Assembly (NCBI GenBank): GCA_043800755.1
Contig: JAZDMQ010000024.1
Location: 1-12,568 of the forward strand
Reading direction: 5' to 3'
DNA from: a bacterium
GTDB taxonomy: Bacteria > Methylomirabilota > Methylomirabilia > CAVQYV01
DNA: 12,568 nucleotides
The notes beneath the pieces are model-generated. The model made no database searches, was not told where the DNA came from, and saw only the letters and a list, made by a program, of their open reading frames with translations. This document shows positions 1-7,087 of this stretch, in pieces; within the stretch, counting starts at the first letter, position 1, and every line of letters starts with the position of its first letter. The position numbers and the translations under genes are program-made.

Positions 1-467
1 GAGGCGATTTTTTTCTGGAGGGTTCGGGTGCTCCACCGTTCAATTCGGCACATCTCGGCGTAAAAGTCCCGCTGAAGGGAATCCTGAAGGTAGATGATGG
101 ATAGGAAATGGGTCCAGCTCAATTGTCTCATCAGTGCTGAGACAATCCGTTCATCGGGAAAGGCCTCGGCAAAACGAAGCATGTGCCGCAGGCTTTTTTC
201 GGAGAATCCTCTCCCATAATCCGCCTCCAATTGACGCGACAGTATAGAGACAATTGCCTCCCCATACTCGGCACGCTCTCCTTTAAGAATCTCCTCGTTG
301 ACCCGCCGACCAACCCGCCAGTAGAGCATGGTCAAGGCGGAGTTGACAAAAACGGCGACGCCTTGGCGCGTCTCTTCGATCATCCGGCGAAGGTCTTTCA
401 GAAGCAGAGGCGCAGCTTCCGGCGGAGCCGGTTTCGCTTTCTCCAAATCTCCCTTTCTGACGGTCAT
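1..467 (-). CDS. yhcG: YhcG/DUF1016-family protein (N-terminal domain of a PD-(D/E)XK nuclease-family protein), truncated by the window edge
   Basis: Manual translation from ATG 467, preceded by GGAGGGG, is open to position 1: MTVRKGDLEK...LLKDLRRMIEETRQGVAVFVNSALTMLYWRVGRRVNEEILKGERAEYGEAIVSILSRQLEADYGRGFSEKSLRHMLRFAEAFPDERIVSALMRQLSWTHFLSIIYL...QRDFYAEMCRIERWSTRTLQKKIA. It has the DUF1016 N-terminal motifs VN...LYWxxG, YG, GFS..L..M..F, LSWTH and RxFY....W. Absent from the ORF track because there is no stop codon in the window. Confidence 0.92.
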   Translation of the reverse strand, partial: MTVRKGDLEKAKPAPPEAAPLLLKDLRRMIEETRQGVAVFVNSALTMLYWRVGRRVNEEILKGERAEYGEAIVSILSRQLEADYGRGFSEKSLRHMLRFAEAFPDERIVSALMRQLSWTHFLSIIYLQDSLQRDFYAEMCRIERWSTRTLQKKIA

Positions 468-525
468 GGCGTCCCCTCCAGCAACTTGACCACATTCTCC
501 GCGCTCCGCTCTTCCATGCTTCGCA

Positions 526-560
526 CCCTCACCCCGGCCCTCTCCCAGGGGGAGAGAGAG
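526..560. repeat. Palindromic repeat copy 1 (REP/BoxC-like)
   Basis: ccctcaccccggccctctccc-agg-gggagagagag: pyrimidine tail plus a CTCTCCC/GGGAGAG stem. Confidence 0.85.
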
Positions 561-638
561 TTCTTGCAATGGTTTCTCATCACTCCCTCTCCAACAACTT
601 GACCACATTTTCTGCGATCCGCTCTTCCATGCTACGCA

Positions 639-673
639 CCCTCACCCCGGCCCTCTCCCAGTGGGAGTGGGAG
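639..673. repeat. Palindromic repeat copy 2 (REP/BoxC-like)
   Basis: ccctcaccccggccctctccc-agt-gggagtgggag. Confidence 0.85.
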
Positions 674-690
674 TTTTCGATTAGCTTGGT

Positions 691-2772
691 TCATATGCCC
701 GCCTCCAGTAACAGGCTGATATTTTCGGCAATGCGTTGCTCTAACTCGCGGGCCTCGGCGTTGAGGGTTTCCAGCTCCTCGTTCTGCTCCTCCAGCCGCT
801 CTTTGAAGTCAAAGTCCTCCTCGGCGCGGGCGGCCACGCCCACATAGCGGCCGGGGTTGAGGCTCCAGCCCTGGGCTTCGATCTCGCTTAGAGTGGCCAC
901 TTTGCACAAGCCCGGTACGTCCACGTACCGGGCACCCTCACCCCTGGCCCCTTTCCCAGAGGTAGAGGGGAGGAAGCCGTATTCGGCCAGAAGCTTGGCG
1001 CTGCCATGCGCATCTTCCGGCGTCTCGCCGCGATAGAGCCGGGCGATGTTGGCCAGGAACTCGATCTGCGCCGGGGTCCAGTCGCGGTGGGCGCGGTCTA
1101 ATTGCCTGAAAATCTGGCGCCCGTCGATGAACAGAACAGTATCTCTGTACCGAGCGCCTTCCGTTCCGCAGTCGACCCGATCTTCAGGCAAACCCTCACC
1201 CCTGGCCCCTCTCCCACAGGGAGAGGGGGTTTCCGCACCCTGAGAGGTAGAGGGGAGGTTGGCCATGATCGTTTGGAGAACAGATTCGACGGAGTCGAAG
1301 ACTTGATGATTTGGAAAACGAAGAACACGATAACCCGAGGTGCTGAGATACGCATCGCGTTTCGCGTCCTGTTCACGTCGGCTGGCGTCATCGTGCACAC
1401 CGCCACCCAGTTCAACGACCAAGCCGTACTCCGGGCAGAAGAAATCAACGATGTAATCCCCTATCTGATGTTGGCGACGGAACCTGAGTCCAGCCAGTTT
1501 CCGGTCACGCAGCAAATTCCACAAGAGATCCTCGGCGGGGGTCTGATTCTTCCGGAGCTCGCGGGCCTCTTCCTTTAACCCCTGGAAGATGTAACCTCCT
1601 TTCCCGCCGGGAGAGGACTGAGGTGAGGGTGGACAAGGCGGAAGCGACGCTTTCGCCTTGTCCATGAACCATAGAGTGCAAGGCAAGATTACCGTATAGA
1701 AGAAGTTGGAGCCGACAGCAATCATCACATCAACTGCACTGCTCTGGATCAACTTCTGCCGGATCTCCAGCTCACTGGCCCGGGCATCGCTGGCAGAGTT
1801 AGCCATGACGAAGCCAGCCCGGCCCGTAGGACTCAGCGCGCTGTAGAAGACCTGAATCCAGAGATAGTTAGCATTATCCGCCTTGGGGAGGCCCAAGGGG
1901 AAGCGAGGGTCATCCTTGATCCGCTCTTTGTCCACCCGATCCACATTGAACGGAGGATTGGCCATGACGAAGTCGAATTTGCCCACGCTGCGGTGGATGT
2001 CCTCATAGTAGCTGTTTCCTTGGCGGATGTCGCCGGAGAGGCCATGAACAGCCAGGTTCATCTTGCACAGGCGGACGGTCTCCAGGGTTTTCTCCTGGCC
2101 ATAGACCATGATCTCGGCGCTCGGATTTCTCTTGTGATTCTCCACGAAGCGGGCGCTCTGGACAAACATGCCGCCTGATCCGCAGGCAGGGTCGAAGATC
2201 CGCCCATGGTAGGGCTCGATCACCTCGACGATGAGCTTCACGATGGAGGTGGGGGTGAAGAACTCCCCGCCCTTTTGCCCCTCACTCATCGCGAACTTGC
2301 CCAGGAAGTACTCATAGATCTTACCAAAGGCATCGCCCTCGATGTCCATGGGCACGGCAGCGAAGGTCTTGAGCAGGGTGAAGAGGGTGGCGTTGTCCAG
2401 GCGGGAATAGGTCTTGGGCAGGACATCTTTCAAATCTTCGTTTTCCGCCTCAATGGCCTTCATCGCCTCGTTGATGGCCTTGGCAACGTCAGCTCCCTCC
2501 GGCAAATTGAGCAGGGTGGAGAAGCGGGCCTGCGGCGGCAGGTACATGACTCCCCGGGCCTGATAGTCGTATTTCCCGACGCTGCGCCGACCGCTCCCTT
2601 GGCCCTGCAATTCCTGCTCCACCTGCGAGAACTTGTGGTCGGCATAGCGTAGAAAGATCAGGCCGAGGACCGGCACCGAGTATTCCGAGGACTTGAGCTT
2701 GGAATTGGCCCGCAGCTCATCCGCCGCGTCCCAGAGTCTCTTTTCGATCTCATTGTTATTCGCAACGGCCAT
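691..2772 (-). CDS. hsdM: Type I restriction-modification N6-adenine methyltransferase subunit M, carrying an in-frame DUF559-like insertion
   Basis: N-terminal [12 protein letters not shown]...[17 protein letters not shown], motif [10 protein letters not shown], motif IV NPPF and C-terminal [10 protein letters not shown]. Start placed at ATG 2772 (GAGG upstream) rather than TTG 2814. Confidence 0.96.
935..973. repeat. Palindromic repeat copy 3, in frame inside the hsdM C-terminal region (encodes [13 protein letters not shown])
   Basis: ccctcacccctggcccctttccc-aga-ggtagaggggagg, with the same tail and stem design as the other copies. Confidence 0.85.
1193..1229. repeat. Palindromic repeat copy 4 (encodes [12 protein letters not shown])
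   Basis: ccctcacccctggcccctctccc-aca-gggagaggggg, with a perfect CCCCTCTCCC/GGGAGAGGGG stem. Confidence 0.9.
1235..1258. repeat. Partial repeat copy 5 (internally deleted relative of copy 3)
   Basis: gcaccct-g-agaggtagaggggagg; 1243-1258 is identical to 958-973 (16 bp). Confidence 0.65.
1598..1629. repeat. Palindromic repeat copy 6, opposite orientation (encodes [11 protein letters not shown])
   Basis: cctttccc-gcc-gggagagg-actgaggtgaggg; its reverse complement ccctcacctcagtcctctccc... matches the family. Confidence 0.8.
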
Positions 2773-2814
2773 CCTGAACCTCGGTTTTCGAATGTTGTGT
2801 GGATACCCCGGCAA

Positions 2815-3016
2815 GCCTGGGGCACTTTCTCTTGCCGGTCCGGCCGGCTCCTGAGCGACCTTGTGCGCTTATGAGCGAGGAGAGCTCGGAGAAGTGAGGC
2901 CGAGCTGTCTGAGCCCTCCGCTGGGATTTGGAGGAGGGCGAGTTCTCGGCCGCCGAGATCGCACGAGCAAATGCACGCGGGAGCGAAGGGGACGGCCGGA
3001 CCGATGTGCCTTGGGC
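2815..3016. other. Putative structured non-coding element (nested long stem-loop; repeat/MITE-like element or ncRNA)
   Basis: Nested pairings by eye: 2815-2825/3006-3016 (3 G-U), 2836-2846/2993-3003 (perfect 11 bp), 2848-2852/2987-2991, 2885-2889/2953-2957, 2898-2904/2945-2951 and 2913-2919/2933-2939. No convincing ORF. Confidence 0.6.
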
Positions 3017-3134
3017 GCGAAGAACCCAATCACCCCCGGCTGAAGCCGGAAAACTCAAAGCAATTAGTTAGTAGTCAGAAATATATCAGGGTCGATTTCA
3101 AAGTAAAGCCTTTTTCCTGTTACGTCTTTTAGGG

Positions 3135-3162
3135 TTGACAATTTCCCAACTTGGCCGATAAT
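3135..3162 (+). promoter_or_regulatory. Candidate sigma70-type promoter for the glycosyltransferase-helicase genes
   Basis: TTGACA (3135-3140), 16-bp spacer, GATAAT (3157-3162), with AT-rich sequence upstream. Confidence 0.6.
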
Positions 3163-3170
3163 CGGGCGAA

Positions 3171-4733
3171 ATGGAAATGAGAATGGAGGGCGGAGGGCAA
3201 ATCGAATCAAGGGGGCTTTCCAGCGGATCATGGGGCATGGAGGGCGAGTCGGTTCGGAAATGGCAGATCCTCCTCGTCATTCTGGTCTTTGCCGTGGCGG
3301 CCTTCCTCCTCTTCTTCCGCCTGGGCGCGGGCAGCCTCCATTCCTGGACCGAGGCGATCTACGCCGAAATCTCCAAGGAGATCCTGGCCACCGGGGATTG
3401 GAACACCCTCCATCACAATGGAAGAGTCTACCTGAAGAAGCCCCCTCTCTTCATGTGGCTCACCGCCTTGGCCTATCAGGCCCTGGGAATCAGTGAGTTC
3501 TCCGCCCGCCTCGCCTCTCCCCTCTTCGCCCTGGGGATCTTTCTGCTCGTCTATCTATTCGCTCGCCGGATCGGCCCCTGGCCCGTGGGATTGGGGGCCA
3601 TCCTCCTCCTGCTCCACGGGGTCAAGGACTGGCAATATGCCCACCGTTTCAATTTCCTGGCCCTCTGCCGGGTGGGCAACCTGGAGATCCCCCTCACCTT
3701 TTTTATCGCCTGGGCGATGTATCTTTGTTGGAGGGGGCGCGAGCGCCCGCGCTGCCTTCTCTGGATGGGAATCCCCTTGGGTCTCGGAATCATGACCAAG
3801 AGCGCGGTGGGCCTGCTCCCCTTTCTCATGGCCCTCCTCTTCGTGTTCTTCACCCGAAAACGGATCGTCTGGAGTTGGCGCCATCTGGCAGCCGGCCTGG
3901 GCCTGGGGCTCCTCATCGCTGCCCCCTGGCACCTCGGCCAGCTCCTCCTCCACGGCCGCCATTTCTGGGACGATTATGTCTCGGTCACCCTATTCTCCCG
4001 GGTCAGCCATTATCTGACCCGCACCAAAGGCGAGACCTATTATCTGGCCATCCTCCGCAAGGGGTTCGGCCTGTCCGTCTATTTGCTTCCCCTCGCACTC
4101 CCCTATGCGCTGTACCAGGGGGCGCGAAGGCGGGACGATGCCAGCCTCCTCCTGCTCCTCTGGGCGCTGCTACCCCTCTTGCTCTTCTCCCTCTCCCGGG
4201 ACAAGAATGGATGGTATATTGCCCAGATCTATCCGGCCATGGCCCTCCTGCTCAGCCGATTTCTGTGGGGTGCCTCGAAGAGGCCCTGGGCCTTCGGCCT
4301 GGTCATTGCCTTGCTCTTCGCCTCTGGCCTGCGTTTTCCCCCGCCCGCCGACCCGGCACGGGACATCAAGGCCCTGGCCCCTTGCATCCAGGCCTGGGTC
4401 AAGCCAGGGGAGATCCTTTATGAATACGGGGTGGGGTTCGGTACCCCGGCCCCCAACCTGACCTTCTACGCCGATCGCTTCACCCGCTCGCTCAGAAAAA
4501 GGCCTCTGGCCGAGGCCCTGGAGACAGAGGGCCGCTTTTTAGCGACCACCACCGATTATTGGCACCAGGATGAGCAGGGAGGCAGATTGATCTGCCAATC
4601 GGGGAGATGGGTCCTGCTGAAGGCGGAGGGGCGGGGAACGGGCAAGGCCAGCCATGCCCAAGAGGTCGAGGCAGGAAAGGCACCCGCCCCTTCTGAAGGT
4701 GAAGAGGATGAAACCTCGTCGGAGGCCGAATGA
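3171..4733 (+). CDS. ArnT/PMT-like (GT-C fold) integral membrane glycosyltransferase
   Basis: Many hydrophobic segments; LFFRLG..SL.SWTEAIYAEISKEI...GDW, YLKKPPLFMW, GISEFSARL, GIMTKS..G, AAPWH and WYIAQIYPA.ALL. The start is uncertain (ATG 3171, 3177, 3183 or 3237). Confidence 0.85.
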   Translation: MEMRMEGGGQIESRGLSSGSWGMEGESVRKWQILLVILVFAVAAFLLFFRLGAGSLHSWTEAIYAEISKEILATGDWNTLHHNGRVYLKKPPLFMWLTALAYQALGISEFSARLASPLFALGIFLLVYLFARRIGPWPVGLGAILLLLHGVKDWQYAHRFNFLALCRVGNLEIPLTFFIAWAMYLCWRGRERPRCLLWMGIPLGLGIMTKSAVGLLPFLMALLFVFFTRKRIVWSWRHLAAGLGLGLLIAAPWHLGQLLLHGRHFWDDYVSVTLFSRVSHYLTRTKGETYYLAILRKGFGLSVYLLPLALPYALYQGARRRDDASLLLLLWALLPLLLFSLSRDKNGWYIAQIYPAMALLLSRFLWGASKRPWAFGLVIALLFASGLRFPPPADPARDIKALAPCIQAWVKPGEILYEYGVGFGTPAPNLTFYADRFTRSLRKRPLAEALETEGRFLATTTDYWHQDEQGGRLICQSGRWVLLKAEGRGTGKASHAQEVEAGKAPAPSEGEEDETSSEAE

Positions 4734-7087
4734 TGATGCAGCCTCCTGAAAGGCCCATGGAGAGCCTCCCCGGCGGTTCGATCTCGCAGACCATTTCCGA
4801 TTTCGCGGCCCGGTATCCCTTTCCTCTCGATGATTTTCAACTCCAGGCCCTCCGCCGGATCGCCGAAGGTTCCTCGGTCATCGTCTCCGCCCCCACCGGG
4901 GCCGGAAAGACGCTGATCGCCGAATTCGCCATCTGGCTCGCCTTATCCCGGCAGCGCCGTATCGGATACACCACCCCGCTCAAGGCCCTCAGTAACCAGA
5001 AGTACACGGACTTCCAGCGGGAGTTTGGGGAGGAGCAGGTCGGGATCCTCACCGGCGATGTGAAGGTCAATCCCCACGCCCCCCTGCTGGTGATGACCAC
5101 CGAGATCCTCCGCAATATGTTCTACGAGCGGGACTTCCCGCAGATGGCCTATGTGGTGCTGGATGAATGCCACTTCATCGGGGATGAGGGCCGGGGAACG
5201 GTGTGGGAGGAGATCATCATCAACTGCCCCCGCGACATCCGCCTGGTCGCCCTGTCCGCCACCGTCTCCAACATCCGGGAGATCGCGGACTGGATCGAGG
5301 AGGTCCACGGGCCGATGGAGGTCATCTATCACCCGGTGCGGCCGGTCCCGCTGGAATTCCTCTTCTGCGATCGGGAGGCAAAGATGGTCGCCCTGCAGGG
5401 GCTCACCCAGCGCCAGCTGGAGCAGAGCCTTTACAAAGGTAGCCCACGGCCGGAGCGCAGGGACCGCGGGAAGTGGGGTAAAAGCCGCGAGCGGTTCCCC
5501 TCCCCGCGGAGGCCTGTTAACCCCTCGCTGGTCATTCCTTCTCTGGAGGCCAGGGGCTGGCACCCGGCCATCTATTTCATCTTCAGTCGTGCCGGATGCG
5601 AACAGGCCTTGCAGAGGTTTTTGGAGGAGGGAGGGGATCTCCTCGATCTGGGCCAGAAGGAACAGGTCGAGGGGCTCATCGAGGAGACCCTGTTGGAGTT
5701 TCCCAGCATTAGCTTAGAGAGCGAGCTCAATACCACCTTGCTTTCCGGCCTGAAGCGGGGCGTGGGGGTCCATCATGCGGGCATCCTCCCGGCCCTCAAG
5801 CGCCTGACCGAGATCCTCTTCGAGAAGGGCCTGGTCAAGGTGGTCTTTGCCACCGAGACTATGAGCCTGGGGATCCATATGCCCGCCAAGTCGGTGGTGC
5901 TGCAAAGCCTGTCCAAGCGCTCGGATTATGGATTCCGCAATCTGACCCATAACGAGATCACCCAGATGGCGGGGAGGGCGGGCCGCAGGGGAATCGATCC
6001 GGAGGGCAAATGCGTCGTGGCCTTGGACTCCAAGGAGGCCATCGGCGAGGCCCTCCACCTGGTTCGAGGGAAGCCGGAGCCCATCGCCAGCCAATTCCGC
6101 ATCGGCTATAGCTCGGCTGCCCTGCTACTGCGAAATTTCCCCGACGATCAGTTGATCCGCAAGATCGTCGAATCCAGCCTGGGGCAATTCCAGAACCGGA
6201 AACGGATGGAAGTCTTAGAGGAACAGATTGAGCAGGCAGAAGAGCAAGCCAAGGAATCCAGGTCCTTCCAGCCCTTTTGCGGTGATCTACAGGAGATTCT
6301 CCAGTATCGGCAGGTCAGGGAGAGGGGAGAAGGATCAAAGGGCCAAAGGGAGAGGGAATCCTCCCGGTTGAAACTAACCGAGATAGCCTGCCATCGCTGC
6401 CCCAAGAGGGGGGAGTGCGAGCGGCGGCTCCGGCGATGGCGGCGCTGGGAGAGGAATCTGAACGCCAAGCGGCAGGATCTCAACCTGCTGGCCAATTCCT
6501 ATTGGGACCAGTTTCTGCGGGTGAGGGAGGTCCTGCAACATTTCGGTTATGTGAAGGATCAGGCGTTGACCGAAGAGGGCCATCTGATCGCCGCGTTGCG
6601 ACACGACAACGAGCTGCTGGTGGCCCGCATCGCCTTTTCAGGGGCGCTGGAGGGGTTGAAGCCCGCGGAGGTAGCGGCGGTCCTCTCCTGCGCGGTAGAG
6701 GAGCCGAGAAGTCGAGAGGCCCTTATCGCCAAGGTCTTTTTAAAGGGTCAACCTCTGCTCAAGAGGAGGGTTCACCAGATGGAGGGCCTGGCCGAAGAGA
6801 TCCTGCAGGTGCAGCAAGAAAGGGCGATCTTCATGCCCCTCAACCTCCATACGAACTTCATGGCGGCCGCCTATGAGTGGGCTTCAGGCGAGGAGGATTG
6901 GCTGGGCCTGGTGCGCAGGAGCTTCGGCGGCTACGAGGGCGACCTAATCCGCTCCTTCCGCCGGCTCATCGATCTGTGCCGGCAGCTCATCGATGCGCCC
7001 ACCCTGCCTACTGTCCTGCGGGAAAGGCTCTGGCAGGCCACAGAGATGTTAGACCGGGATATCGTCTGGGAGAGCGCGTTGATCTAA
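4730..7087 (+). CDS. helY: Ski2-like DExH-box RNA helicase (HelY family, DSHCT-type C-terminus)
   Basis: YPFPLDDFQ, APTGAGKT, PLKALSNQKY, LTGD, MTTEILRNM, DECH, LSAT, FIFSR, GVHHAG, ATETMSLG, QMAGRAGRRGID and C-terminal EGDLIR..RRLIDL..Q...LDRDIV. ATGA overlap with the upstream stop codon. Confidence 0.92.
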   Translation: MMMQPPERPMESLPGGSISQTISDFAARYPFPLDDFQLQALRRIAEGSSVIVSAPTGAGKTLIAEFAIWLALSRQRRIGYTTPLKALSNQKYTDFQREFGEEQVGILTGDVKVNPHAPLLVMTTEILRNMFYERDFPQMAYVVLDECHFIGDEGRGTVWEEIIINCPRDIRLVALSATVSNIREIADWIEEVHGPMEVIYHPVRPVPLEFLFCDREAKMVALQGLTQRQLEQSLYKGSPRPERRDRGKWGKSRERFPSPRRPVNPSLVIPSLEARGWHPAIYFIFSRAGCEQALQRFLEEGGDLLDLGQKEQVEGLIEETLLEFPSISLESELNTTLLSGLKRGVGVHHAGILPALKRLTEILFEKGLVKVVFATETMSLGIHMPAKSVVLQSLSKRSDYGFRNLTHNEITQMAGRAGRRGIDPEGKCVVALDSKEAIGEALHLVRGKPEPIASQFRIGYSSAALLLRNFPDDQLIRKIVESSLGQFQNRKRMEVLEEQIEQAEEQAKESRSFQPFCGDLQEILQYRQVRERGEGSKGQRERESSRLKLTEIACHRCPKRGECERRLRRWRRWERNLNAKRQDLNLLANSYWDQFLRVREVLQHFGYVKDQALTEEGHLIAALRHDNELLVARIAFSGALEGLKPAEVAAVLSCAVEEPRSREALIAKVFLKGQPLLKRRVHQMEGLAEEILQVQQERAIFMPLNLHTNFMAAAYEWASGEEDWLGLVRRSFGGYEGDLIRSFRRLIDLCRQLIDAPTLPTVLRERLWQATEMLDRDIVWESALI

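Follow-up and report, generated by a model that had tools for sequence, protein, structure and literature searches.

How a nuclease domain came to be translated within the methyltransferase subunit of a Type I restriction-modification system is the question raised by this locus, which we analysed in a window of 12,568 nucleotides, the whole stretch of DNA at hand. The initial annotation had read the domain as a DUF559 endonuclease, inserted in frame in HsdM between inverted palindromic repeats, and had put it forward as a candidate selfish in-frame mobile element. The host gene, the insert and the nuclease domain are placed as follows.

Positions 691 to 2772, minus strand: hsdM, Type I restriction-modification methyltransferase subunit, 693 codons including the insert, open reading frame intact (translation, Pfam, PADLOC).
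Positions 1147 to 1647, minus strand: in-frame insert of 501 bp or 167 codons, between LWFMDKAKA and RDTVLFID (translation and homologue comparison).
Positions 1255 to 1590, minus strand: DUF559/Vsr-like PD-(D/E)xK nuclease domain with no evident start codon of its own (Pfam, PDB match, AlphaFold).

Translation placed hsdM in a minus-strand open reading frame at 691-2814, with its ATG at 2772. The protein belongs to the HsdM family, as it combines HsdM_N (residues 23-150) and N6_Mtase (E 1.4e-75, the Pfam match being cut in two by the insert) with an AdoMet motif and the catalytic NPPF motif (NPPFN), and it matched PADLOC MTase_I with 739 bits over three stretches. The insert comprises residues 390-556 of the window protein (P0001) with no stops and no frameshifts, and in empty homologues the aligned host sequence is contiguous across the site; the in-frame split of about 167 codons proposed earlier was reproduced at exactly the same coordinates. 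Based on the AlphaFold model, the insert site is predicted to be a loop between two beta-strands of the methyltransferase fold, with the flanking host strands at residues 365-371 and 545-550. The DUF559 part forms an alpha/beta domain at residues 399-504 with a pLDDT of about 70-88 per 10-residue block, and values below 50 were obtained at residues 384-398 and 508-537, which are the loop and the linkers. The repeat arms described below occupy these low-confidence Pro/Gly/Ser stretches, which are probably disordered, and the host reading frame is therefore unbroken. The DUF559 segment shares the orientation and the reading frame of its host.

A Pfam scan confirmed the DUF559 identity (PF04480, residues 413-520, E 6.4e-35; score 119.8 bits, cut-off 20.6; positions 3-108 of the 109-position profile), and DUF559 and REase_MTES_1575 were the only non-methylase Pfam models that matched the insert. 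The best PDB match of the domain was 3HRL (E 1.6e-17) rather than 3R3P. With NCBIfam PRK09767 the DUF559 part scored 83.5 bits, under the equivalog cut-off of 218, and neither PADLOC nor NCBIfam gave it a system-level name. The active site of the window copy differs from that of its relatives at one codon.

Positions 1405 to 1407, minus strand: GGT codon (Gly) replacing the near-invariant Asp of E-L-D-G (alignment with 234 DUF559 relatives).

The motif reads ELGGGVH in the window, and the Asp is kept in at least 90% of the 234 aligned cores and in P0002, a homologue that is 92% identical overall; the corresponding motif in 3HRL is EADGGQH. Of the full acidic/His core set (D ... E-x-D-G-x-x-H ... 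D) only this Asp is missing and the other conserved positions are present. Active-site residues were assigned by setting the motif order against the Vsr/I-Bth0305I site given in the available part of PMC3239194, and function was deduced from that comparison. Judged by its sequence the window copy probably lacks nuclease activity and, because a near-invariant acidic residue has been lost, the cassette in the window is probably decaying and immobile. Other active-site substitutions appeared in the alignment in P0003 (KLDG) and in the genome locus L006 (ELNG), and hsdM itself is frameshifted in L004 and L006.

In the three pairs for which dS could be measured, DUF559 had dN/dS values of 0.080, 0.056 and 0.046, which have to be read with dS between HsdM-borne copies near or at saturation (about 1 to more than 1.5); for the window and the DNA locus closest to it dS was saturated, so that this pair gave no usable dN/dS. 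By these codon comparisons, DUF559 is under strong purifying selection. Values as low as those of the host parts, together with a core motif (...ELDG..H...KRD) that is conserved in HsdM-borne copies, favour an explanation in which DUF559 is a working restriction-modification module, for example an extra nicking or cleavage head on M2S or a Vsr-type repair or self-protection function, with the repeats as mere linkers and selection acting at the level of the host. We consider such a domesticated fusion unlikely: the active-site substitutions in the window, P0003 and L006 speak against it, and so does the finding that the DUF559 core matched no named defence-system component in PADLOC except for a weak match to DpdF.

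The repeats on either side of the domain, and those around it, are the following.

Positions 1593 to 1631, minus strand: upstream (gene-sense) terminal repeat, with the tail CACCCTCACC and then a degenerate hairpin, translated into 13 residues (repeat scan).
Positions 1192 to 1258, minus strand: downstream terminal repeat, with the perfect hairpin CCCCCTCTCCC-TGTG-GGAGAGGGG and the tail GGGGTGAGGGT at 1192-1228 and an outer half copy at 1243-1258, translated into 22 residues (repeat scan, folding).
Positions 934 to 970, minus strand: second, solo repeat, inserted in frame towards the C-terminus of HsdM and translated into 13 residues (repeat scan).
Positions 464 to 675, minus strand: two tandem 113-nt units 3' of the hsdM stop, each a repeat (523-559 and 636-672) plus about 60 nt resembling the hsdM 3' end (direct repeat of 99 nt, 87%).

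The unit is a GC-rich hairpin plus tail of about 37 nt. Copies at 523-559, 636-672, 934-970 and 1192-1228 and the 16-nt half copy at 1243-1258 share one orientation, and a single copy, at 1593-1631, is inverted; its arms of 33-39 nt are 77-82% complementary to the other copies. The tails (CCCTCACCC / GGGTGAGGG) face outward on either side of DUF559. The bracketing of the nuclease by inverted, outward-tailed repeats (1593-1631 against 1192-1228) and the four further full or partial copies nearby, now located within 523-1258, were thus found as first described. As every full hairpin-plus-tail unit of the 12.5-kb window falls within 523-1631, and as the same oriented layout, CCCTCACCC upstream and GGGTGAGGG downstream, recurs in 14 of the 14 closest DNA loci, the arrangement exceeds chance. 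The site of the solo repeat is patchily filled or empty among 121 HsdM homologues, and the model has a pLDDT below 50 there (residues 605-611). Each of the tandem 113-nt units encodes a mini-ORF, MEERIAENVVKLLERE followed by a stop, and the last of them shares an ATGA overlap with the beginning of the following gene.

The occupancy of the HsdM loop was determined in these 121 proteins, the query and its 120 best matches of 7999 scored. Three states were found, with DUF559 plus repeats in 34, repeats only in 28 and an empty loop in 59. The repeat-only loops hold one or two repeats, and the two-repeat form matches the cassette ends minus DUF559 (P0025 versus P0002); nuclease-less footprints of this kind in the same loop argue against a domesticated fusion. 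On a host-only tree the DUF559 state requires 8 changes, at least 5 of them forced by the starred branches, against a mean of 29.9 after shuffling (0/500 as low), and filled and empty proteins are sisters at 99% support (P0006/7 with P0048/87; P0010 with P0057). Host and insert also differ in their relationships: in the host N-part P0004 and the window share 81% identity and in the insert 64%, the values for P0004 and P0071 being 63% and 78%, respectively, and the host C-terminal part of P0004 travels together with the insert. Vertical conservation across a wide HsdM clade was therefore not seen, although one clade of 21 members is uniformly filled. The pattern, with a site either occupied or empty and at least 5-8 changes of state along the host phylogeny, is patchy and of the homing type. 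On this comparison, the cassette and its nuclease-less derivatives have entered this loop, been exchanged at it or left it several times. The patchiness and the incongruence between host and insert could also have arisen without any nuclease, through ordinary homologous recombination between hsdM alleles, and strong purifying selection together with the uniform 21-member clade, which counts in favour of domestication, fits a host-useful domain as well as a selfish one.

DUF559 is a large family (25,988 clusters at E ≤ 1e-3), and 67 of the 150 nearest cluster representatives are embedded in larger proteins. The hosts of these 67 are restriction-modification proteins (HsdS, HsdM, HsdR and Type IIG/ISP among them) in 54 cases, other proteins in 4 and unknown in 9; for part of the 234 DUF559 sequences host labels came from regular expressions on the flanks, not from Pfam. 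The share of restriction-modification hosts, and the presence of hsdS directly after the filled hsdM in L002, L003, L004, L006 and L007, because of which these loci look like ordinary operons, support a domesticated module, and the host bias may reflect function rather than target choice. The same cassette with its terminal repeats was, however, also found in MetRS (L013) and HemD (L014), next to HsdR (L011), and on plasmids of Synechocystis sp. B12 it lies out of frame in genes for PglX and a DUF1156 methylase, splitting both; neither is expected of a domesticated fusion, nor are linkers that are DNA palindromes and occur between genes too. Between the two Synechocystis copies identity is only 75% over 163 nt; the plasmid collection from which they come gave 7 records at E ≤ 1e-15, none of which is a close relative. 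In both Synechocystis loci and in each of the 13 genome loci that have this repeat type (L002-L014), DUF559 is co-oriented with its host.

DUF559 is strongly associated with the repeat. The density of the tail sequences in the 14 closest DNA loci was 3.9 per kb near the domain and 0.38 far from it, and the translated repeat motif occurred in 207/287 DUF559 flanks compared to 80/1491 control windows. The survey of DUF559 domains that had been suggested returned both flanking repeats and in-frame insertions in many unrelated proteins. More distant DUF559 loci have flanking C-run/G-run hairpins of their own (24 of 39 testable loci, above all 20 null comparisons), and the specific 9-mer tail was not enriched near those genes, with any match in 11/42. 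The same hairpin-plus-tail type was found in Proteobacteria, Nitrospirota, Verrucomicrobiota, Lentisphaerota, Cyanobacteriota and one genus of Bacteroidota, whereas other Bacteroidota, with more distant DUF559, carry different hairpins. Repeat type appears to follow the DUF559 clade and not the host phylum. The DUF559 tree itself (109 columns, FastTree) was poorly resolved; host labels clustered on it yet were not monophyletic, HsdM needing 13 changes versus 50.4 when shuffled.

These data bear on a further possibility, that the repeats are the active agent and DUF559 is cargo, with REP- or MITE-like hairpins being moved or recombined by another enzyme and the nuclease trapped between two of them as a composite. 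Both HsdM hot spots, and the DNA between genes, often hold single or paired repeats without DUF559, L002 and L009 have very similar DUF559 cores (pN 0.064) with different flanks and junction types, and the tails in L013 face inward instead of outward, all of which is in line with this possibility. It seems to us quite improbable, as repeat type tracks the DUF559 clade and no transposase domain was detected in the 9 window ORFs scanned with Pfam, as the initial annotation had stated, or in the 31 neighbouring ORFs scanned. Near-identical cassettes at different sites of one genome were not found in loci of up to 8.3 kb, which gives no direct sign of recent movement. As for the initial reading of the insert as a selfish in-frame mobile element, a mobile-type cassette rather than an ordinary domain fusion was borne out by the three loop states, the tree incongruence, the many hosts and the repeat association; the uniform 21-member clade and the dN/dS values are compatible with long-term retention too, and so with the domesticated fusion that had been named as the alternative.

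At the junctions we discovered that the host flank is repeated in inverted orientation directly next to each repeat tail, as listed here for the window.

Positions 1630 to 1664, minus strand: left junction palindrome, 1630-1646 being the reverse complement (16/17) of the host MDKAKA codons at 1648-1664, translated as SLPPCP (repeat scan; fold z -3.95).
Positions 1147 to 1191, minus strand: right junction, a degenerate inverted copy of 15 host codons at 1102-1146, translated into 15 residues (1102-1117 versus 1176-1191, 88%; fold z -4.91).
Positions 910 to 933, minus strand: perfect 11+2+11 palindrome next to the solo-repeat tail, with ARY codons that are the reverse complement of the host VPG codons (sequence; fold z -5.10).

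The left-junction palindrome is shared by L002, L008 and L012, with a longer version in L003; the arm at the right junction is TTGCCTGAAGATC, and its extension past 16 nt was judged by eye. A junction palindrome score of at least 9 was reached at 15 of 28 junctions compared to 2.0% of 2100 random positions. Compensatory changes were seen in 4/14 helix pairs and in none of the slid controls; these represent few independent events, since only two lineages are separated by them. At 8/28 junctions there was no palindrome, in part because the outermost tail was taken where several repeats were present. By eye we saw no direct target-site duplication at the junctions despite the terminal inverted repeats, the host flank being copied in inverted form instead. 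This inverted-flank scar is predicted by no mechanism that we can name.

Excision after transcription or translation, as an intein or an intron, would leave a mature HsdM without the insert. Vsr-like nucleases are known from group I introns and from between split inteins, according to the available parts of PMC3239194 and PMC2677866, and the first residue of the insert is Ser, its only intein-like feature. The junction (...GARY|RDT) has no preceding HN, its +1 residue is Arg rather than C, S or T, Pfam found no Hint/intein domain in the window, and the flanks are short repeats; within 300-3200 no Rfam intron or other family matched at E ≤ 0.1, apart from two sub-threshold chance matches. The lack of intein splice residues noted earlier was in this way corroborated, and with the junction residues, the Pfam result and the Rfam result we rejected splicing, the probability of which we put close to nil.

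Recombination between the inverted repeats could alternatively flip the DUF559 segment and switch the host gene off and on by phase variation. The arms are inverted and 33-39 nt long, and predicted targets of programmed inversion were enriched for 'DUF559 domain-containing protein' (odds ratio 14.3), N-6 DNA methylase, PglX and Eco57I-type methylases in the material available from PMC9881135, one supplementary file of which had no DUF559 entry. The arms are, however, short and imperfect, Pfam found no recombinase in the window, and the uniform co-orientation of DUF559 with its hosts, described above, is at odds with inversion, which makes such a switch very improbable.

In our literature search we found no published description of DUF559 cassettes with flanking repeats inside restriction-modification genes. 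An S. suis preprint that seemed to report DUF559 was set aside, its domain being DUF5590, and a Thermosynechococcus paper merely names an EDxHD gene and was not accepted as a precedent. A similar layout is that of REP/RAYT (REPIN), with a single-copy gene between inverted hairpin repeats, dispersed solo or paired copies (here the gene-free doublets in HsdM homologues and E. coli) and a repeat type that appears to co-vary with the enzyme clade. RAYTs are HUH/Y1 transposases. In the cassette the enzyme is instead a PD-(D/E)xK Vsr-like nuclease, Pfam found no HUH/Y1 (IS200/IS605-like) transposase in the insert, and the elements lie in frame inside genes. The EDxHD or Vsr-like homing endonucleases such as I-Bth0305I belong to the same nuclease superfamily and have a site-specific presence/absence pattern of this kind; as described in the available part of PMC3239194, they are found at conserved positions within conserved genes, and cleavage of the empty allele is how they spread. 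They reside in self-splicing introns or between split inteins, with NUMOD/HTH DNA-binding domains, and homing endonuclease genes in general are carried in an intron or intein of this kind or stand free between genes, whereas the window cassette is unspliced, read through in frame and repeat-flanked, with neither a Hint domain nor an Rfam intron, and its best PDB match is 3HRL and not 3R3P.

Inteins also insert in frame into host proteins and often hold a homing endonuclease, but the window insert has no Hint fold or splice residues and presumably stays in the mature protein. Rickettsia palindromic elements are short palindromic mobile repeats in frame in coding genes, translated as a fold-compatible extra peptide (PMC10969869); they are about 150 bp long, limited to Rickettsia and contain no enzyme, whereas the unit studied here is about 37 nt, occurs in many phyla, is placed on either side of a nuclease domain and leaves the host flank copied in inverted form. 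The coding palindromes of Nematomorpha mitochondria are inverted repeats within coding sequence with both arms translated (PMC6649704), but they are long, perfect, mitochondrial and without an associated nuclease cassette; the arms in the window are 11-26 nt and adjoin a mobile repeat.

Based on these comparisons, we incline, with somewhat better than even confidence, to see in the insert a local member of a widespread family of small mobile cassettes, in which a DUF559 coding segment is enclosed by inverted hairpin-plus-tail repeats. Sister cassettes are found in loops of HsdS, HsdR, Type IIG/ISP, PglX and DUF1156 methylases, and now and then in housekeeping genes. The nuclease would make a cut or nick in the repeat tail or the empty target, or right next to either, after which repair or recombination would carry the cassette, in a homing-like manner, to conserved sites in defence genes that are exchanged horizontally; the homing-like or transposon-like mode of movement is inferred. 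Selection on the host may retain an insertion only if it is co-oriented, in frame and in a loop of an indispensable gene. Fold-back or template-switch synthesis at the cut could have left the inverted host-flank copies at the tails as scars, and solo and paired repeats would be non-autonomous derivatives.

More tentatively, and on balance we doubt it, DUF559 and its cognate hairpin-plus-tail repeats (BoxC-like in enterobacteria) may represent an unrecognised, phylum-spanning class of mobile DNA. Such a class would be driven by a PD-(D/E)xK nickase, with non-autonomous repeat derivatives and without its own promoter or start, would be translated as an internal host domain, would preferentially occupy conserved loops in genes for restriction-modification and other defence methyltransferases, and would insert via a hairpin or fold-back intermediate that leaves inverted host flanks instead of a target-site duplication. 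If true, this would give a function and a partner to two orphans, the DUF559 family (including E. coli YcjD) and the BoxC-type GC-rich hairpin repeats, and would add read-through as a loop domain as a third way, besides splicing and translational bypass, in which a nuclease-bearing selfish element can reside in a gene and leave it functional. It would also explain the odd extra domains and Pro/Gly-rich 'linkers' (PSPxGRGxGGEG) annotated in HsdM, HsdS, HsdR, Type IIG, PglX and others, and point to one origin of defence genes that are split or inactivated. The scar of inverted host flank may reflect a chemistry, of insertion or of repair, that is undescribed for bacterial elements.

Additionally, 35-37-nt matches to the repeat, at about 92% identity, were found in unannotated intergenic DNA of 4305/5426 E. 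coli genomes. These may be the BoxC-type palindromes to which the initial annotation had likened the repeat. BoxC is listed in the available part of PMC2267715, where its sequence is not given. In E. coli the repeats are intergenic and ycjD is free-standing, in contrast to the in-gene cassette of the window. An outward-tailed inverted pair lies, for example, between flgG and flgH, and in K-12 the DUF559 gene ycjD continues at its 3' end into a hairpin of this kind, with a full hairpin+GGGTGAGGGG unit about 170 nt downstream.

Translation, Pfam and a repeat search bore out, at its stated coordinates, the claim of the initial annotation that HsdM carries an in-frame DUF559 insert between inverted repeats. 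The features concerned are the following.

691-2772, minus strand: hsdM, Type I methyltransferase subunit of 693 residues (HsdM_N and N6_Mtase)
1147-1647, minus strand: insert of 167 additional codons between LWFMDKAKA and RDTVLFID, without stop or frameshift
1593-1631 and 1192-1228: repeat copies flanking DUF559, mutually inverted, tails outward
1243-1258: half copy of the repeat
934-970: repeat copy in frame within the HsdM C-terminal region
523-559 and 636-672: repeat copies 3' of the hsdM stop
3-467, minus strand: DUF1016_N / YhcG-like protein gene downstream of hsdM (Pfam E 2e-43), incomplete as it extends past the window end; product matches PADLOC candidate defence family PDC-S02 (E 8e-66)

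The AdoMet motif and the catalytic motif NPPFN are undamaged in the translated HsdM, and the centre of the insert is the DUF559 domain, as predicted earlier (Pfam E 6.4e-35; nearest solved structure 3HRL, E 1.6e-17). An AlphaFold2 model from 48 aligned sequences (mean pLDDT 72.7) placed the DUF559 fold at residues 399-504, flanked by host strands 365-371 and 545-550, with pLDDT below 50 at 384-398 and 508-537, which the repeats encode, and also at the second repeat (605-611). We read the model as suggesting a loop insertion carried on disordered linkers. Window scans revealed no Hint domain, splice residues, Rfam intron or transposase, which upholds the earlier statement on splice residues and transposase, and splicing of the insert is hardly credible.

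The insert site was compared in the query and its 120 best HsdM hits of 7999 scored. DUF559 with translated repeats, including PSPSGRGAGGEG, was present in 34 of these 121 proteins, one or two repeats without DUF559 in 28, and the site was empty in 59. The two-repeat forms look like the cassette minus exactly the nuclease (homologue P0025 against P0002). On a tree of host columns only, with the insert left out, the DUF559 state required 8 changes, of which well-supported branches forced at least 5; filled and empty sequences occurred as sisters with 99% support, and one clade of 21 was uniformly filled. The homologue P0004 shared 81% identity with the window protein in the host N-terminal part and 64% in the insert, compared to 63% and 78%, respectively, with P0071, and its C-terminal host part grouped with its insert. 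These discordant identities indicate transfer of the insert from one hsdM backbone to another, by recombination if nothing else. Insert and host, whose phylogenies the initial annotation had proposed to compare, disagree. A second HsdM loop (...EYGF, LPSTSGRGAGGEG, ARYVDVPG) was also patchily filled and empty among homologues. At this second hot spot, in the C-terminal region (window 934-970), many homologues had one or two translated repeats and many had none; P0003 was 96% identical to the window protein in the N-terminal part, yet differed here.

A full HMMER scan gave 25,988 DUF559 cluster representatives (E<=1e-3). Among the best 150, the domain was embedded in larger proteins in 67, with HsdS (30), HsdM (8), Type IIG/L (7), HsdR (4), Type ISP (2), N6_N4 methylase (2), DUF1156 (1), other (4) and unknown (9) hosts, labelled by Pfam for 68 proteins and by flank patterns for the rest. 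The translated repeat motif occurred in 207 of 287 DUF559-flanking 60-residue windows, compared to 80 of 1491 control windows from the same proteins. The supposed association with flanking repeats was therefore recovered, as was in-frame residence in unrelated proteins, MetRS and HemD included.

Of 55 DUF559 loci from a genome scan, 13 (L002-L014) had at least 51% identity and came from Lentisphaerota, Nitrospiraceae, Gallionella, Verrucomicrobiota, Kiritimatiellales, Deltaproteobacteria, Nitrosomonadales and Leeuwenhoekiella. In all 13, DUF559 was co-oriented with the host sequence in a single ORF (hsdM in 10; hsdR, metG and hemD in one each), and with the window included, all 14 loci had CCCTCACCC upstream and GGGTGAGGG downstream. 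The tails point inward in L013, because each repeat unit is flipped there. An invertible switch, for which a published table has DUF559 proteins among predicted inversion targets, is very improbable, as DUF559 was co-oriented in 15 of 15 loci seen.

The cassette of L013 (2-1573, Nitrosomonadales MAG) lies in frame in methionyl-tRNA synthetase, where it separates the anticodon-binding domain from tRNA_bind, and that of L014 (3884-5038, Leeuwenhoekiella MAG) in the HemD N-terminus directly after hemC; both hosts are essential housekeeping genes. Extra solo or paired in-frame repeats are common in cassette-bearing HsdM genes (L002, L005, L007, L008, L012), e.g. at 3258, 3470, 3514 and 4584 in L007, and also reach neighbouring genes, such as hsdS of L002 (4480).

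Near distant stand-alone DUF559 genes the tail GGGTGAGGG was mostly missing (any hit in 11 of 42), and other C-run/G-run hairpins flanked DUF559 in 24 of 39 testable loci, exceeding all null comparisons. Qualitatively, these sequences suggest that repeat type tracks nuclease clade rather than host phylum. The hairpins (L015-L056) are lineage-specific, have the form C4-5...G4-5 (e.g. TCCCCCTTAAAAAAGGGGG, TTCCCCTCCTTGGAGGGG) and stand on both sides of the gene, often with a G-rich tail behind; in Bifidobacterium choloepi (L047) the inverted arms reach 62 nt. In cultured Synechocystis sp. B12, a window-type DUF559-repeat unit interrupts both a DUF1156 methylase and PglX, the BREX methylase (plasmids CP101712.1 and CP101716.1), partly out of frame, leaving host pieces as separately annotated ORFs. 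Host-frame stop codons lie within the repeats there.

The three states at one site with tree incongruence, the single terminal architecture shared across many unrelated hosts, the repeat type following the nuclease clade, and the existence of decayed and gene-splitting copies fit a selfish nuclease cassette accompanied by non-autonomous derivatives. Host selection would filter its insertions down to co-oriented, in-frame, loop-located survivors. We lean slightly towards this reading; the loci examined yielded no recently duplicated copies in any single genome. The alternative that the repeats drive the process, with DUF559 as their cargo, seems rather doubtful. In 4305 of 5426 E. coli genomes, intergenic DNA matched a 37-nt stretch of the window repeat at about 92% identity.

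Between HsdM-borne DUF559 copies dN/dS was 0.080, 0.056 and 0.046 (dS about 1-1.5) and the core motif ...ELDG..H...KRD was retained, which indicates selection on the nuclease protein. A domesticated function of the domain would fit this strong purifying selection, the long retention in one HsdM clade and the marked bias to restriction-modification genes, and is considered unlikely. By motif order, following PMC3239194 and PMC1189080, the E-x-D position corresponds to (D/E)xK of canonical PD-(D/E)xK enzymes and F-x-H of Vsr. As the window copy reads ELGG at this conserved position (codon 1405-1407), its nuclease has probably lost activity, barring a sequencing error at the G; P0003 has KLDG and L006 ELNG. 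L004 (2658-4816) and L006 (2698-4804), two of the ten loci with hsdM as host, have the hsdM N-terminal part in another frame than the rest, by frameshift or assembly error.

The DNA next to the outer edge of each repeat tail matches host coding sequence from close by in reverse complement. In the window this applies to 1630-1646, a mirror of 1648-1664 that gives the MDKAKA codons, read inverted, as SLPPCP; 1147-1191 is a degenerate mirror of 1102-1146, and a perfect 11+2+11 palindrome adjoins the solo repeat at 934-970. Palindrome scores were at least 9 in 15 of 28 junctions (2.0% of 2100 random positions) and at least 12 in 10 (0.3%), and 8 yielded no palindrome. Arm length and loop size vary by lineage, and other HsdM families (L010, L012) have the scar as well. 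Pairing held for 96% of cells in the right-junction helix, where 4 of 14 pairs showed compensatory changes between two lineages and slid controls showed none. No direct target-site duplication was seen at the junctions. The scars may stem from fold-back or template-switch synthesis, or from hairpin-capped ends, at a cut at the element edge; to our knowledge, no mechanism described so far predicts them.

REP/RAYT systems have single-copy enzymes flanked by repeats, a known kind of part. The same holds for Vsr-like homing nucleases (PMC3239194) and for RPE, in-frame palindromic elements (PMC10969869). Not found in the literature searched was their combination as seen here: hairpin repeats on either side of a nuclease that is translated as a loop domain of its host, inverted scars of the host flank, and a concentration in defence methyltransferase systems.

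The repeat unit consists of a hairpin, CCCTCTCCC-N4-GGGAGAGGG, and the tail GGGTGAGGG, with no full unit outside the listed copies across the 12.5 kb. Directly past the hsdM stop lies a tandem pair of 113-nt units (464-675), each with one repeat and about 60 nt containing a mini-ORF similar to the HsdM C-terminus (MEERIAENVVKLLERE or MEERSAENVVKLLEGTP, then a stop); the final unit shares ATGA with the start of the next gene. They look like remnant 3' ends of former hsdM alleles, or direct duplications from repeat insertion. The DEAD/DSHCT helicase gene (4730-7087) contains two GGGAGAGGG motifs spaced 30 nt apart (6318-6356), which could be what is left of a repeat insertion or a coincidence. 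Upstream of hsdM, the intergenic DNA at 2836-3003 holds an inverted repeat whose arms, 31 nt long and separated by 106 nt, are 74% complementary. The DUF559 gene ycjD of E. coli K-12 ends in a window-type hairpin, with a full repeat unit about 170 nt downstream. About 45 nt of its 3' end (...ETVLENI...LN...) recur about 60 nt past this hairpin (NC_000913.3 1351000-1351840). The hairpin seems to be an insertion in the former 3' end, accompanied by direct duplication.
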